From the UHGV virus genome UHGV-0172001: DNA of 46,559 nt; one strand, 5' to 3'. Numbering within the stretch: position 1 is the first letter of the stretch; every line of letters begins with the position of its first letter. Position numbers and translations under genes: made by a program. The stretch is from a virus. This document shows, piece after piece, positions 1,075 through 11,078 of this stretch. The notes under the pieces were generated by a model, which was not told the DNA's origin, searched no databases, and saw only the letters and a program-made list of their open reading frames with translations.

Positions 1075-2193
1075 TCAAACAACCAATTTAACCCATTCCT
1101 GACCACGAGTATCGTTATAACGATCGGTGGTTGCCTGGACTTTATGTCCCAGTAATGTTTTTGTATCAATACCCTGCGCGCGGTACAGTCGTTCTGACAG
1201 GGAGCGTTGTTCATGAAATGTTGGCGGAGTTTTTCCTGCTGGTGGAGTTATCCCAGCCAGATCCCGTGCTTTGGCAAAGTAGTCGCTCAGGTTGTCTTTA
1301 CTCATCGGCTTTGGTTGTTTCTGGTGCCGACTATGGATTAGATATGGACTTAATATTCTGTCTCGGCACCCATCAATAACTTCTTTTAACGTTATCCCAA
1401 TGGCATCACAGCGTAGTGTAAGCGGTAACGCCAGACGCATTCCGGTTTTTCCCTGGGTGATATGCAAGTGTTCGTTCCACACATCTGAAAAACGCATGTG
1501 GCAAATGTCATCACGGCGCTGACCAGTAACAATCGCAAGAAGCATTGCGTTACGGATAAAGTGTTTTTCAGGCGTTGCGTTGTAAATTTTTTGCCAGTCT
1601 TCCAGGGTGAGCCTGGCTCTAGTTACTTTAGGGATCGGTTTACGGGTAGCCTCCGGAGGATTCCATCCAGGAGGAACTTCCCCTGCATGCTGTGCTTCTT
1701 TATAAATATCAACCCATAATCCACGATTTACTCTCGCTGTGCTGACCATGTCTTTATCCAGCCACTCATCCAGTATTAATGCAAAGTCTCTTACTTCCAG
1801 TTCTTTCAATGGGTAGTTTCCCAGACGGGAAACCAGGTATGCAGCCATTCGGGCTTTTTCTTTGTGAGTTGTAGCTGCAATATCTCCATTTTTCAGTCGC
1901 GTGTCCTGTATTTTCAGATATCGATCAACCCATGCCTTTAATCTGATACCCCGACGTTTTGTTGCTGACGGGCTTTCATCAATTTTGCGCATGAAATATT
2001 CAGCTTCTGCTGCTGCTATTCGCTGATTGGCTGTGGAAGCAATTTTTTCTGCTTTACCTTTATCTGTTCCGAGTCCGTGAAATTTTCCAGTCACAGGGTT
2101 TTTATACTGGTAGTAAACCCTGCCAGTTCTGCGATCAAACTTTTCGTAAAGACCGGCTACGTCAGTGCTGTTTTTTCGTGGCCTCGGTGACAT
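1075..2193 (-). CDS. int: Lambda-family tyrosine integrase
   Basis: 372 aa; C-terminus HEQRSLSERLYRAQGIDTKTLLGHKVQATTDRYNDTRGQEWVKLVV parallels the lambda Int catalytic C-terminus (H-x-x-R ... LLGH ... Y); start overlaps the xis 3' end as in lambda. Confidence 0.95.
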   Translation of the reverse strand: MSPRPRKNSTDVAGLYEKFDRRTGRVYYQYKNPVTGKFHGLGTDKGKAEKIASTANQRIAAAEAEYFMRKIDESPSATKRRGIRLKAWVDRYLKIQDTRLKNGDIAATTHKEKARMAAYLVSRLGNYPLKELEVRDFALILDEWLDKDMVSTARVNRGLWVDIYKEAQHAGEVPPGWNPPEATRKPIPKVTRARLTLEDWQKIYNATPEKHFIRNAMLLAIVTGQRRDDICHMRFSDVWNEHLHITQGKTGMRLALPLTLRCDAIGITLKEVIDGCRDRILSPYLIHSRHQKQPKPMSKDNLSDYFAKARDLAGITPPAGKTPPTFHEQRSLSERLYRAQGIDTKTLLGHKVQATTDRYNDTRGQEWVKLVV

Positions 2194-2431
2194 GAGTTAA
2201 AATCTCCTTCAGTGCATCATCATCGCCAGTATGAATTTCCGGCGCAATTCCCGTTTCACTTGGTCCAACAAATACTGCCCGGCGATCTATCAGCCAACGC
2301 CCACGAATTTTTTGTGGTCTCGGAACGATGTATCCAAGTTTTCCGTATTTCACCAAGGTAGTGTTTGTTATTGGGAGGCTGAACCGTTTAGGTTTCCACT
2401 CGTCGAGCGTTATCAGGTACTGTTCGCTCAT
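2162..2431 (-). CDS. xis: Excisionase (Xis-like)
   Basis: YLITLDEW...KPKRFSLPITNTTLVKYGKLGYIVPRPQKIRGRWLIDRRAVF resembles lambda Xis; sits immediately upstream of and overlapping int; ATG at 2431 with GGAG upstream (GTG at 2440 is an alternative start). Confidence 0.75.
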   Translation of the reverse strand: MSEQYLITLDEWKPKRFSLPITNTTLVKYGKLGYIVPRPQKIRGRWLIDRRAVFVGPSETGIAPEIHTGDDDALKEILTHVTEATKKQH

Positions 2432-2492
2432 GGCTATCACTCCGGAACGCGCCAGTTGCAGAATACCAACGACAACTGGCGACGGTTGAACA

Positions 2493-4949
2493 TTAAAAAT
2501 CAGCCTGACTCGGGATCAGTTTTTGCCAGATAGCTGAAACGTATTTTGCCTGGTAACGGGCGTCATCAAGTGCATTATGGCGCTCACCTTCGAATGGAAT
2601 AGCCGTTCTGGCATCGAAGTCTATGGCTTTCCCCAGCTCAACGATTGTGCGTACATCGCGATCGTTGTAGTAGCTCCACGGGCAGGGGATCCCCTGCCGT
2701 TCGTATGAACGGCGTAAAATCACGTTGTTGAAGTTGGCTTCCTTCCCCCAGATCTGAACAAAAAATTCACCGGAGTTTTCGTCGATAAATTCCCGCAATT
2801 GCAGCAGTGCATCATCTAACGGGATTTCATCGGTCATAATGGCAGATTGCGCTTCGCGTGATTGTTTACACCAGTACTTTATTGCGCCCCGGTCGATGAC
2901 TCCGCCAGCAGTTTCCAGATCGATGGTCTTGCTAAATTCCGGCCCCATATCTCCGGTTTGCGGATCGTAAAATATTGCACCTATTGAGATAATCGGGGCA
3001 TCGGGACTTGTGCCCATAGTTTTAAGGACGATCATCAAGTGGTGCCACACCCTGCTGGTGGATGTGCTTTCATGATGACCGTTCACCTTAACTGAGTGAT
3101 TTGTCGCCTCGCCAGTTTTATTATCGCTATCGTGATGCTGATTGCTGCCAGGGTTCTCCTTGTGTGGATGTTCAGCGTCTTCCATTTCCTTCGGATCATT
3201 TTCCTGAACTTCAACCTGATTCTCTTCATCGAATGTTTCCTGGTATGTTGCGTCGCCCATCACCGCGCCACAATCAGGGCAGTTGCCGCCACCGCTCTGA
3301 CCGCAGGCGGTGCAGACTTTTTCCAGTTCCTGTTGCGCTACTGGCTCGGATTGTTTCGTTTCTGGCTCGTTTTGTTGCGCATTTCGGCTGTTTTGTTCCG
3401 CTTTCTGGTCGTTCTGTTCCGATTCTTGCTGGTTCTGGTTTACAGAATCGCGGGTTTCAATCCCCTTCACCCATTTCGGATCATTCGGGTCGCTAATCCC
3501 TGCAACAAATTCTCCGCGAGAGGCCGCAAGCAACTTATTGGCGTCAGGCTGGCTGATATTGGATGCCTGCATAATTTTGTTTACTTCGTCAGCGGTAACT
3601 TTTACCTGATTAGCCGGATCTATCTGTGCCTGAGTATCCAGCGATTGCGTGTCCTGGCGATGTTCAGTTGTATCCGGCTCCATTGTTTCAGCCGTTGCCT
3701 GTTCATCTGCCATTGCGTCAGACGGTTGTGATTTTTCCTCATTATTTTTTTCTTCTTCTGTTTCGCGTTTAGCAGCCAGTTCGCGGTTAACTTCTTCCAG
3801 GATATCTTTTTCCGGTGTATGTCGTGCAGCAGCGAGAGTTTCCTCGGTAGGGTTCTCGTGATCAGTCTCCGTTAAATAGGCGTTGATATACCCCTGAAGG
3901 CGTCCCGGGTAATGATAAAACTCAGGGTGTGCGCTCCGGATAAGTGCAAAAATAGCGGCGCGGGAGTAATCCAGGATACCCGGGATTGCGCGAAGTGCTG
4001 CGGACCATTCTTTGAACGGACTTTCTTTCTTCCGGACGACTTCTTTTGCGCGACGATAAACGCTGCCCGGAATTTCATAAATATTAAAATCCATCGGAAG
4101 TGTGGCCGCTGCTATCTCCACATCCAGCGTATCGAAGGTGTGTACTAAATTCGGATTGCGATCGGTTTTGTTCCCTCCACCGGCATTAGCACCGGAAGCC
4201 GTGCGGGTGATGCGTGAAACACGATTTCCTCTCATCCACTCTTTTGTCAGCAGACCGCGATCGGTGTAGTCAGCGTCCAGATATGCTTCGAAAAAAGCAG
4301 TCATTAGCCCCAGGCCTGAATTGCCAGGATTAGGGAAAACTTTGTCAGTATCACGCACCAGTTTGTGGAGATCGCGAATTTCCAGTGGATCGAGCAGACT
4401 GGTTTTATGCGAAATAGCGAGGGCAGTAACAGCCGGTAGTTCTTCAGCCCGTGCAATGTGTAATGCCTGGAGTTCGTCGCGTGAAACGTGCGTTACCGGT
4501 TTTTCGCTGCCGCGTTGAGCAAGCCAGCGAATGGGCAGTTCCTGACCGGAAACCGGCAGGAGCATGTTCTCCTCAATCTCAGCCATGTCTTCGCCGTTGA
4601 CGTTGGTATTGTCAGTGCTGGCTGGTTTATCCTGAACAGAGGGCGAGGGCGCGATAAGTACCATTGTGATACCATCTTCCCCGCCTTTTTCGTATCGGTT
4701 GCAGAATTTGGTATCAAACACGCCTTCCGGAGGAAGGTCATTCACAACGGGTAAATGGACGCGAACAGGTTTTTTAAAATCCTCTTCGTCAAATCCAGCA
4801 TCGTCCATTGCGACAACACCGCGTGATATTGCAACCGATAATTTTTTTGCTGTGCGCCAGTAAAAACCGCCTTTAATCCCAAGGCGTTTTCTGACTTTGT
4901 CATTTTTTGCTTCGTAATATAGTGCAATTTCTTCTTTATCAGCGCTCAT
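2493..4949 (-). CDS. Large prophage exonuclease: N-terminal region resembling Rac RecE (exodeoxyribonuclease VIII) non-catalytic part, acidic low-complexity centre with a CxxC...CxxC knuckle, C-terminal DnaQ-like DEDDh 3'-5' exonuclease domain
   Basis: 818 aa; C-terminal motifs [10 protein letters not shown] (Exo I, DxE) and [13 protein letters not shown] (Exo III, H-x4-D); [16 protein letters not shown] zinc-ribbon-like; position between xis and the immunity region. Confidence 0.7.
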
Positions 4950-9454: not shown

Positions 9455-9874
9455 GTGGCAAAAGTATTTACACAAGAAGAGCGGGAAAAAATTAAGGGGC
9501 TGGTTGTTGAACTTGTACGCCAGAGCGGGCGCGAGACGTTACGACAACTGGAAGCTAAGACAGGTGCGACAAGATATTTAATAAGCGTTCTTGCCAGAGA
9601 GCTGGTTGCCAGTGGCGATGTATACAACTCTGGTTACGGGTTATTCCCGTCTGAACAGGCGCGTAAGGACTGGCAAAACGCCCGCAAAAAACTCTCGAGG
9701 GCAAAGCTGAAGAAAACATCTGTGGTTGATCCGGACCTTATCTGGTCGTTACCAGACGGAGAAATACGCCGCTACGACAGGCGTCAGAACATAATCTGTC
9801 GCGAGTGCCGGAGAAGTGAAGTTATGCAGCGAGTTTTGATGTTTTACAGGGGTAATAACGGAGCAACGATATGA
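9455..9874 (+). CDS. Hypothetical protein
   Basis: 139-aa ORF, GTG start at 9455 after CAGGAGG. Confidence 0.5.
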   Translation: MAKVFTQEEREKIKGLVVELVRQSGRETLRQLEAKTGATRYLISVLARELVASGDVYNSGYGLFPSEQARKDWQNARKKLSRAKLKKTSVVDPDLIWSLPDGEIRRYDRRQNIICRECRRSEVMQRVLMFYRGNNGATI

Positions 9875-10170
9875 GGGTTTATATCGCAGGGCCGATGACC
9901 GGGTATAAAAATTTCAACCGTGAGGCATTTCACGAGGCGGAAGAGAAGCTGAAACAGAAAGGGTGCACGGTGTTGAATCCGGCAGTGCTTCCTGGTGGGC
10001 TGACACAGGCGCAGTACATGGATATTTGTACGGCGATGCTCCGCTGTGTGGATACGATTTACATGCTGAAAGGCTGGCATCGGTCGGCAGACGCTAAGGC
10101 AGAACTGGCGCTGGCGGCGAAACTGGGGCATGAGGTTGTATTTCAGGAGGCAACCAGTGAGCGAGATTAA
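9871..10170 (+). CDS. Nucleoside 2-deoxyribosyltransferase-like (DUF4406-type) protein
   Basis: MRVYIAGPMTG N-terminus typical of this family; ATGA coupling with the upstream gene. Confidence 0.55.
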   Translation: MRVYIAGPMTGYKNFNREAFHEAEEKLKQKGCTVLNPAVLPGGLTQAQYMDICTAMLRCVDTIYMLKGWHRSADAKAELALAAKLGHEVVFQEATSERD

Positions 10171-10744
10171 CTATCAGGCACTGCGTGAGGCGGCAGAAGC
10201 AATAAAAATAGCAGCCACACCACAAAAATTGCTGGCATTTCGTATGAAGGTCACACCTCAGGTTGTGCTGGCACTGCTGGATGAACGGGAAAGAAACCAG
10301 CAATACATAAAACGCCGCGATCAGGAGAACGAGGAAATTGCGCTAACGGTAGGGAAGCTGCGTGTTGAGCTTGAAGCAGAAAAATCAAAACTCAACGAGC
10401 AGCGTGAGTATTACGAGGGAGTAATCGCGGATGGAAGTAAGCGCATAGCAGAACTGGAAGCACGGGAAATAAAACCAGCCAAAGGCGAAGTTCTTGTCGT
10501 TGTATCTGGTTTTACTGGTTGCGGGAAAAGCGCCATTGCCGGGGAAATAGAAATTGCGATGAAAGCTATTGGTGTGCCGGTTCTATGGACTAATGGCGAT
10601 GCGGAAAAGCGCATGACAGGAGCTGACTGGCTGACAGCGATTGAGATGTACAAACCAACTGTGTGCATCGTGGAAGTTAATGTGCCACGCGCCGCTGGCA
10701 TTCGCATCAAAGGAGAGGAGCATGCAAATAAAACCAGAAGATGA
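10157..10744 (+). CDS. Hypothetical protein: coiled-coil N-terminus, C-terminal Walker-A-like motif
   Basis: GTG at 10157 after CAGGAGG; heptad-rich KLRVELEAEKSKLNEQREYYEG; SGFTGCGKSA resembles a P-loop. Confidence 0.5.
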   Translation: MSEINYQALREAAEAIKIAATPQKLLAFRMKVTPQVVLALLDERERNQQYIKRRDQENEEIALTVGKLRVELEAEKSKLNEQREYYEGVIADGSKRIAELEAREIKPAKGEVLVVVSGFTGCGKSAIAGEIEIAMKAIGVPVLWTNGDAEKRMTGADWLTAIEMYKPTVCIVEVNVPRAAGIRIKGEEHANKTRR

Positions 10745-11078
10745 GTTAAGTAATATTGTTTTATTTCCGGTAAAGGAGGATGACCCACGTGATCAGGTTA
10801 ATTTTCTTTATGAGCCATCGGAAAGACCATACTGCCATCACGCTTCTGTCCGGGTTGACGAAAAAGAGCGTCAGGTCCGCTGTAAAATCTGCGGTGCAGT
10901 TGTGGAGCCGTTTGACTGGATGCTCTCAGTGGCGAAAAGAGAAACCAGACTGGCAGATGATGTAAGGCTATTGCGCCAGGAGGAACAGGAAAGGCGGAAA
11001 AATATAGAAAAGTTAATTCAGATTGAGCGTAACGCGAAAGCGCGGATACGCAGGGCGACAAAATCCAGAACTGAATAA
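10722..11078 (+). CDS. Hypothetical protein with CxxC pair
   Basis: ATG 10722 after AAAGGAGAGGAG; CHHASVRV...CKICG. Confidence 0.45.
   Translation: MQIKPEDELSNIVLFPVKEDDPRDQVNFLYEPSERPYCHHASVRVDEKERQVRCKICGAVVEPFDWMLSVAKRETRLADDVRLLRQEEQERRKNIEKLIQIERNAKARIRRATKSRTE

Follow-up and report, generated by a model that had tools for sequence, protein, structure and literature searches.

An Ea22-family early protein carrying a Walker-A-bearing C-terminal module in the virus genome UHGV-0172001

Gene, mosaic plan and neighbourhood

The window analysed here is the whole 46,559-nucleotide stretch of the UHGV virus genome UHGV-0172001, and the gene under study is an open reading frame (ORF) of 195 codons on its plus strand, the product of which belongs to the family of the lambda early protein Ea22. 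A sequence-only reading had placed the gene at these coordinates in an early region, and had described its product as a protein with a coiled-coil N-terminus and a Walker-A-like motif. The coordinates stand, as the ORF, its Shine-Dalgarno sequence and the boundaries set by the Prokaryotic Genome Annotation Pipeline (PGAP) agree. The GTG start at 10157 lies 6 nucleotides 3' of an AGGAGG read from the sequence, and in E. coli BCE049 PGAP sets the same boundaries for a gene with 99.7% DNA identity, under the name 'ead/Ea22-like family protein' (WP_097501433.1). The start itself, GTG-AGC-GA(A/G)-ATT-AAC, is common to lambda ea22 and the window gene. Motif and coiled coil were thus correctly seen in the sequence-only reading, but the wider plan of the protein was missed: the gene is almost certainly an Ea22 mosaic, in which a lambda-type N-terminus and coiled coil are followed by a swapped C-terminal cassette (Table 1).

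The evidence for this architecture comes from both protein and DNA. The Pfam family Ead_Ea22 (PF13935) matches residues 2-101 with an E value of 2e-26 (93.5 bits against a cut-off of 27), and the similarity to lambda Ea22 (P03756; PF13935 / IPR025153) is limited to residues 1-14, residues 32-103 and the terminal AGIRIKGE region (the last 8-10 residues). In the DNA alignment with lambda ea22 the mosaic boundaries are sharp. A crude heptad score peaks in windows that start at residues 45-77, thereby spanning roughly residues 45-105, in keeping with the coiled coil of the earlier description. The lambda gene has the same GTG start, N-terminal peptide and 3' junction and a coiled-coil region with about 93% DNA identity, and its product is likewise made of three parts, the last being a C-terminal domain of about 75-80 residues. 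It differs in that this domain is unrelated to the Walker-A-bearing module of the window protein (residues 104-178), and in that the lambda gene belongs to the leftward early operon, where it is part of the exo-xis block, whereas the window gene follows the replication genes.

According to published work, Ea22 begins with an N-terminal segment, has a coiled coil at its centre and ends in a C-terminal domain; the complete proteins of lambda and P27 form tetramers, whereas C-terminal domains in isolation are dimers (PMC10834534). By analogy with these experiments, the coiled coil of the window protein would serve as an oligomerisation scaffold. The nuclear magnetic resonance structure of the lambda C-terminal domain is a beta1-beta2-alpha1-beta3-beta4-alpha2 dimer (PMC10834534). 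Lambda ea22 is pro-lysogenic, by a mechanism that the published work leaves unexplained (PMC10834534; PMC7093339; PMC8614690). The tetrameric state and the pro-lysogenic phenotype are on record only for Ea22 of lambda and of phages that encode Shiga toxin (PMC10834534, PMC7093339).

The 3' end of the gene also departs from that of lambda. Lambda and most relatives stop immediately after KGE, and the window gene, which lacks the lambda stop, reads 8 codons further, giving the protein an extension of 8 residues. The '+GE' tripeptide at the C-terminus (the KGE end) is common to all Ea22 proteins and its significance is unexplained (PMC7093339). Within the 25-nucleotide junction block of the window gene, AAAGGAGAG lies 4 nucleotides 5' of the ATG of the next gene (10722). 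The tripeptide may therefore be conserved at the level of DNA, as a recombination junction and/or a Shine-Dalgarno site, rather than for the protein.

Table 1. Features of the Ea22-family gene and its immediate neighbours, in window coordinates
Feature	Position	Strand	Basis
Upstream gene, DUF4406, nucleoside 2-deoxyribosyltransferase-like, phrog_355	9871..10170	+	family match
Shine-Dalgarno sequence AGGAGG	10145..10150	+	sequence; start agrees with PGAP and lambda ea22
Coding sequence, Ea22-family early accessory protein, 195 residues	10157..10744	+	BLASTP to lambda Ea22, E 2e-51
N-terminal segment as in lambda Ea22 (MSEINxQALREAAE)	10157..10197	+	DNA alignment columns 1-41 nearly identical
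Variable stretch	10198..10249	+	alignment columns 42-93 divergent from lambda ea22
Central coiled-coil region, residues 32-101	10250..10459	+	~93% DNA identity to lambda ea22; Ead_Ea22; heptad score
C-terminal cassette, 233 nucleotides, ~75 residues (residues 104-178)	10460..10692	+	unlike lambda, alignment columns 304-536
Walker A GFTGCGKS, residues 118-125	10508..10531	+	after predicted beta1 VLVVV, before helix; GKS invariant
GEIEI, residues 129-133, helix after P-loop	10541..10555	+	invariant in alignments A1, A2, A3
E150-K151, loop or short helix after predicted beta2	10604..10609	+	invariant in alignments
Walker-B-like V-x-I-V-E-x-N, residues 169-175	10661..10681	+	E173 invariant, N175 97% conserved
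3' junction CGCTGGCATTCGCATCAAAGGAGAG, encoding AGIRIKGE, mosaic boundary	10693..10717	+	25/25 nucleotides identical to lambda ea22
Extension EHANKTRR (8 residues) and stop	10718..10744	+	alignment with lambda and relatives
Downstream gene, zinc-ribbon protein, phrog_1621	10722..11078	+	family match

The surroundings are those of a Rac/lambda-like prophage, and the early-region location given in the sequence-only reading is borne out. On the left, the minus strand codes for an integrase, a RecE-like exonuclease and a helix-turn-helix repressor; rightward, the order is YdaS/YdaT-like genes, an O-like replication gene, DUF977, DUF4406, the window gene, the zinc-ribbon gene and an HNH gene, with a lambda gpA-type terminase further on. 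The window gene overlaps the DUF4406 gene by 14 nucleotides and the downstream gene by 23, and is thus part of a tightly packed early operon, in which the zinc-ribbon gene is probably translationally coupled to it. The order of a DUF4406 gene followed by a gene with the same C-terminal module recurs in E. coli BCE049 and in the E. coli locus Ecol_448. A minus-strand ORF of 125 codons at 10411-10788 is unsupported, and is unannotated in the near-identical E. coli locus. An additional observation concerns the RecE position of this Rac-like prophage (2493-4949, minus strand), where an 818-residue protein combines an Exonuc_VIII (RecE-type) domain at residues 56-189 with an Rv2179c-like 3'-5' exoribonuclease domain at residues 637-808, which is an unusual pairing there.

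A conserved and portable module

The conserved part of the cassette is a 7.4-kDa module of about 70 residues, G110 to R178 (nucleotides 10484-10690), and the stretch matched in relatives is always about 72 residues long. The match of SGFTGCGKSA to GxxxxGK[ST], on which the sequence-only reading had centred, is confirmed at residues 117-126 (10505-10534), within the stretch VLVVVSGFTGCGKSAIAGEIEIAMKAIG, the hydrophobic strand of which is read from sequence only. None of the 82 aligned relatives (48-98% identical to the window domain) departs from its GKS, and G-[FLYI]-T-G-x-GKS is found in 146 of 149 representatives of clusters formed at 50% identity. In SURPRISE13_138 of a Burkholderia jumbo phage, at 39% identity, GRTGVGKS and VRVVEKN are kept and GEIEI is lost; a homologue search seeded with this domain returned nothing, and the alignments therefore became no more diverse.

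The motif is embedded in a series of other invariant or near-invariant positions. The first half of the module contains G110-E-V-x-V-x-V, G118-x-T-G-x-G-K-S-A, A-G-E-I-E-I, G139 and V142-x-W, and the second half E150-K, T154-x-A-D-W, E163-x-Y-K-P and V169-x-I-V-E173-x-N-x-P. Of these, GEIEI is specific to the family and is without counterpart in known P-loop nucleoside triphosphatases (NTPases). D148, at a DGD-like position, is D in 71% of the members and another residue otherwise. The invariant hydrophobic residues alternate with positions 115 and 170, which vary and are polar, and one face of the presumed sheet may thus be exposed to solvent or to a partner. From these patterns the module reads as beta1, Walker A, alpha1, beta2, a loop or short helix, alpha2, and a beta3 that ends in four hydrophobic residues and a glutamate (hhhhE). 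The predicted order would correspond to the first three strands of a P-loop domain of the kinase/GTPase type, with an acidic residue at the place of Walker B.

An exhaustive HMMER search with residues 102-195 yielded 439 clusters at 50% identity, in which the module appears in several settings: as the tail of Ea22-type scaffolds, at either end of proteins of 260-620 residues without Pfam domains, and alone, in proteins of 70-80 residues (P0344, P0345 and P0354). On marine and other metagenomic contigs, genes for the stand-alone form are grouped with other small early genes of phages in arrays. A tblastn search with the module matched 17 of 50,697 phage records, among them phiV10, D6 and Burkholderia phage BcepC6B, and 365 of the 5426 complete E. 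coli genomes searched carry module DNA, in chromosomes as well as in phage-plasmids. Two fusions are of note. In Ecol_448 (L010:186-749) the module is part of a 187-residue 'hypothetical protein' encoded after a DUF4406 gene, and in gp37 of BcepC6B (L002:3917-4516) it is N-terminal and followed by an unrelated region of about 100 residues. In neither protein does the region attached to the module carry an Ead_Ea22 signature, which shows that the module can travel without the Ea22 scaffold.

No Pfam, NCBIfam or named PHROG family spans the module; phrog_250 and phrog_11761 match it and have no function attached. Pfam scans of 20 long module-bearing proteins gave no informative partner domain beyond Ead_Ea22, and PADLOC gave only a sub-threshold match to the P-loop of Avs2, which provides no link to a known defence system. 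On the phage-like marine contig that carries the stand-alone P0345 (L004, 6001-6243), the interval 1333-3532 contains an adenylosuccinate-synthetase-like gene (362 residues, PF00709) two genes from a YfbR-like/HD_3 phosphohydrolase gene, a pair that resembles the PurZ/DatZ cluster of phages in which 2-aminoadenine takes the place of adenine.

The module is under purifying selection. Among five E. coli alleles the synonymous divergence (dS) is 0.14-0.23, and the ratio of nonsynonymous to synonymous divergence (dN/dS) is 0.03-0.15 in 9 of the 10 pairs, the tenth being almost identical, which makes its ratio uninformative. Differences between the alleles are concentrated in the tail and at residues 143 and 170, and these two residues carry most of the non-synonymous change. 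The window allele has Leu143 (10583-10585) and Cys170 (10664-10666), where nearly all relatives have a polar residue (Q, K, N, E or T) and Arg (also V or K), respectively. The module is therefore a self-contained, portable and strongly conserved phage-borne cassette without a family entry of its own.

As a C-terminal domain of Ea22, the module has parallels in the phages that encode Shiga toxin (Stx). Their Ea22 variants V1, V2 (DUF551) and V3 resemble the window protein in a shared N-terminus and coiled coil, in interchangeable acidic C-terminal domains and in the '+GE' end (PMC10834534, PMC7093339). The C-terminal domains of lambda and of V1, V2 and V3 bear no relation to one another, and all four are acidic (PMC10834534; PMC7093339; PMC8614690). 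A P-loop, a Walker motif or a kinase is not mentioned for any Ea22 variant in PMC10834534 or PMC7093339, a literature search for Ea22 together with a P-loop or ATP binding returned nothing relevant, and none of the 17 phage records matched by tblastn is a Stx phage listed in PMC10834534. The tail of the window protein thus seems to add another type of Ea22 C-terminal domain to those described, as judged from the published descriptions of V1-V3.

Likeness to P-loop proteins

The module probably derives from a P-loop protein. Among 38 diverse members, weak Pfam matches recur for AAA_16 (37 members) and APS_kinase (34), both at E < 1, and for AAA_18 (30), and one member reaches 24.1 bits for APS_kinase (E 4e-5), over the Pfam gathering score of 21.1. 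Profile searches against NCBIfam and PDB sequences turned up little besides P-loop kinases, MinD/Mrp/ArsA, UvrA and a P-loop ATPase designed de novo, all of them sub-threshold at E values of 0.005-2; SRP54 and FtsY match at 0.1-0.6, and dethiobiotin synthetase is also among the SIMIBI proteins used in the comparison. The top PDB profile match, HasAp (E 0.02), aligns GEV..V.GL....SALAGEI without the GKS and is treated as chance. Some sources name relatives 'ATP-binding protein' or 'adenylylsulfate kinase-like'.

The similarity to APS kinase (PF01583) and to SIMIBI proteins is not confined to the loop, but runs through alpha1 and beta2: a hydrophobic strand, G-x-x-G-x-GKS, a helix and a short strand, which is 'VLWTNGD' in the window protein. 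The corresponding short strand of APS kinase has the motif 'vyvLDGD'. Our reading of these profiles is that the first 40 or so residues share ancestry with, or at any rate cannot be told apart from, the strand-loop-helix-strand at the N-terminus of P-loop kinases and SIMIBI proteins, and that the last 30 or so would be specific to the family.

There are differences as well. Only about 40 of some 150-250 residues are matched, and the module is without strands 4/5, a lid and a substrate site; it does not amount to the full kinase domain of APS kinase, with its DGD(N) site for Mg and APS and its lid. Compared to MinD, ParA and SRP, the S-G-[FL]-T-G-x-GKS of the module is without the signature lysine of the deviant Walker A (KGGxxGK[ST]), and the module does not have the SRP G-motifs. 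P-loop NTPases as a superfamily have a three-layer alpha/beta core of at least five parallel strands in about 150 residues or more, whereas the module has about 70 residues and at most three predicted strands.

Possible functions and their meaning

The size of the domain sets limits to its function. From the GKS to R178, where the module ends, there are only 53 residues, and this length, together with that of the free-standing homologues, agrees with the statement of the sequence-only reading that the domain is too short for a typical P-loop NTPase. Since strands 4/5, a lid and a base-recognition element are missing, the module is no self-sufficient NTPase. The suggestion of 'a degenerate or minimal nucleotide-binding module' was the right kind of idea and is supported in part, by a conserved Walker A in the proper, predicted strand-loop-helix setting, by the family matches and by the hhhhE. 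The motif is not degenerate, being among the best conserved parts of the module.

The explanation that we favour, with moderate confidence, is that of an Ea22 mosaic in which paired modules provide a site for a phosphate-bearing ligand. Judging from lambda and P27, the coiled coil would hold two to four modules side by side. A half-P-loop of three strands, as presumed for the module, would leave an exposed edge at beta1, and paired modules may form a phosphate site from K124 and S125 of the P-loop together with E173. Such a site may bind a nucleotide, polyphosphate, nucleic acid or another phospho-ligand, and binding rather than turnover would tune the contact of the Ea22 scaffold with a host or phage target in early development, as a switch or recognition element; this presumed role follows the pro-lysogenic effect of lambda ea22. 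Taken as separate claims, binding of a phospho-ligand is somewhat less likely than not, and hydrolysis of nucleoside triphosphates (NTPs) would be quite unlikely.

The small size of the module is not prohibitive, since engineered beta-(P-loop)-alpha polypeptides of 40 residues bind NTPs, polyphosphate and single-stranded DNA, doing so as oligomers only (bioRxiv 10.1101/2020.07.30.228619). These P-loop prototypes of the Tawfik laboratory (bioRxiv 10.1101/2020.07.30.228619, PMC10119929) are likewise very small units, and they depend on the oligomerisation which the coiled coil is expected to supply here. They differ in being designed or derived by ancestral inference, with ligand binding shown, whereas the module is a natural phage domain known from its sequence, and it has the additional conserved motifs GEIEI, EK and ADW. 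A stronger version of the hypothesis, in which the module would be a natural minimal P-loop (half of a kinase/GTPase-class core) that forms a working phosphate or nucleotide site, perhaps with weak NTPase activity, only when the scaffold juxtaposes at least two copies, is rather unlikely.

Several results weigh against a phosphate-ligand site. The window domain itself remains below the Pfam cut-off (APS_kinase 15.4 bits against 21.1, with AAA_16, nSTAND and ParA also sub-threshold), its NCBIfam matches are below threshold as well, and the APS_kinase matches span only profile positions 3-40 of 152, or about 38 positions. The profile search that had been proposed as a check is thus divided in its outcome: P-loop families recur across the members and one of them exceeds the cut-off, but the window protein does not. 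Neither partner domains nor neighbouring genes indicate nucleotide chemistry. No catalytic activity is assigned to any of the other Ea22 C-terminal domains that have been studied. All of them are predominantly acidic, and the purified ones are dimers (PMC10834534); the module is acidic too, with an isoelectric point of 5.2.

Structure prediction, also proposed at the outset as a check, belongs with these results in part. AlphaFold2 modelled residues 100-195 from the 82-sequence alignment with a predicted local distance difference test score (pLDDT) of 78 and a predicted template modelling score of 0.66, and placed helices at K124-A137 (starting right after the GKS), G147-T154 and W158-Y165; the stand-alone P0345 gave the same helices at a pLDDT of 75. 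DSSP assigns no strand in either model, V169-x-I171-V172-E173 does not pair with the P-loop strand in either, and a Foldseek search of PDB and BFVD found nothing at E <= 0.001. No P-loop fold was therefore obtained, yet neither was a confident alternative fold, and both models are monomers of a domain that is probably oligomeric. Monomer models of Ea22 C-terminal domains are known to be unreliable; for the lambda domain, the one correct prediction was that of the dimer in isolation (PMC10834534). In the other direction, AlphaFold may reproduce P-loop geometry for a Walker A sequence as such, so that likeness of fold is not independent of the motif. Covariation (mutual information with average product correction) on 135 unique domain sequences, at an effective number of about 35, gave signals at the level of clades only, with no information on strand pairing.

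The main rival to phosphate-ligand binding is a pseudo-P-loop, that is, a small dimerisation or protein-binding domain in which the loop is kept for its structural role or for contacts with a protein, as a relic of a P-loop ancestor or by convergence, and binds no ligand. This is possible, though doubtful. The models without a sheet or a significant fold match would suit it, as would the missing strands 4/5, lid and base-binding elements, the dimeric and acidic Ea22 domains without known enzymatic function (PMC10834534), and a GEIEI motif that is as invariant as the Walker A while having no NTPase counterpart. It accounts less readily for the finding that the ligand-contacting G-x-GKS does not vary and that a hydrophobic strand ends in an acidic residue which does not vary either, as nucleotide binding predicts, for the persistence of Walker A and VRVVEKN in the Burkholderia jumbo-phage relative that has lost GEIEI, and for a similarity to APS kinase and SIMIBI proteins that reaches past the loop into alpha1 and beta2.

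An autonomous small ATPase or kinase is very improbable. The Walker A and the Walker-B-like glutamate are present, one relative exceeds the APS_kinase gathering score, and some pipelines name relatives 'ATP-binding protein' or 'adenylylsulfate kinase-like enzyme'; against this stand the short span of the APS_kinase match, the end of the module some 53 residues past the GKS, stand-alone forms of 70-80 residues, the variable DGD-like position and the lack of a fold match.

A chance GxxxxGK[ST] in an ordinary Ea22 protein is refuted, not by the bare pattern, which is unenriched in the six-frame translation of the window (3 matches, one of them in a long ORF, where shuffled sequence gives 2.06 +/- 1.40) and appears by chance in 0.47% of shuffled versions of the window protein, but by its invariance across a module family of enterobacterial, Burkholderia and marine phages, by the dN/dS of about 0.03-0.15, by the consistent P-loop family matches across members and by the drop to 0.028% of shuffles in which the motif arises when four hydrophobic residues are required before it.

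Part of this picture is already visible to automated annotation, which names the gene as Ea22-like and relatives as 'ATP-binding'. What is new is that this type of Ea22 C-terminal domain is a widespread module of about 70 residues, also free-standing, with Walker A and Walker-B-like motifs. Few lambda early proteins still lack a mechanism, and Ea22, which affects lysogeny and the induction of Shiga-toxin prophages, is one of them. If no ligand is bound, the module would be one more interchangeable Ea22 tail. A recognisable ligand-binding motif (K124, S125 and E173) provides an experimental handle which the lambda, V1, V2 and V3 domains do not offer. If the stronger hypothesis of a natural minimal P-loop were true, the module would be a living counterpart of the engineered prototypes, spread through the early proteins of phages as a plug-in cassette with a sensor or effector role. 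As a conserved, free-standing Walker-A module of 70 residues, it would be a useful natural test of how small a functional P-loop unit can be.

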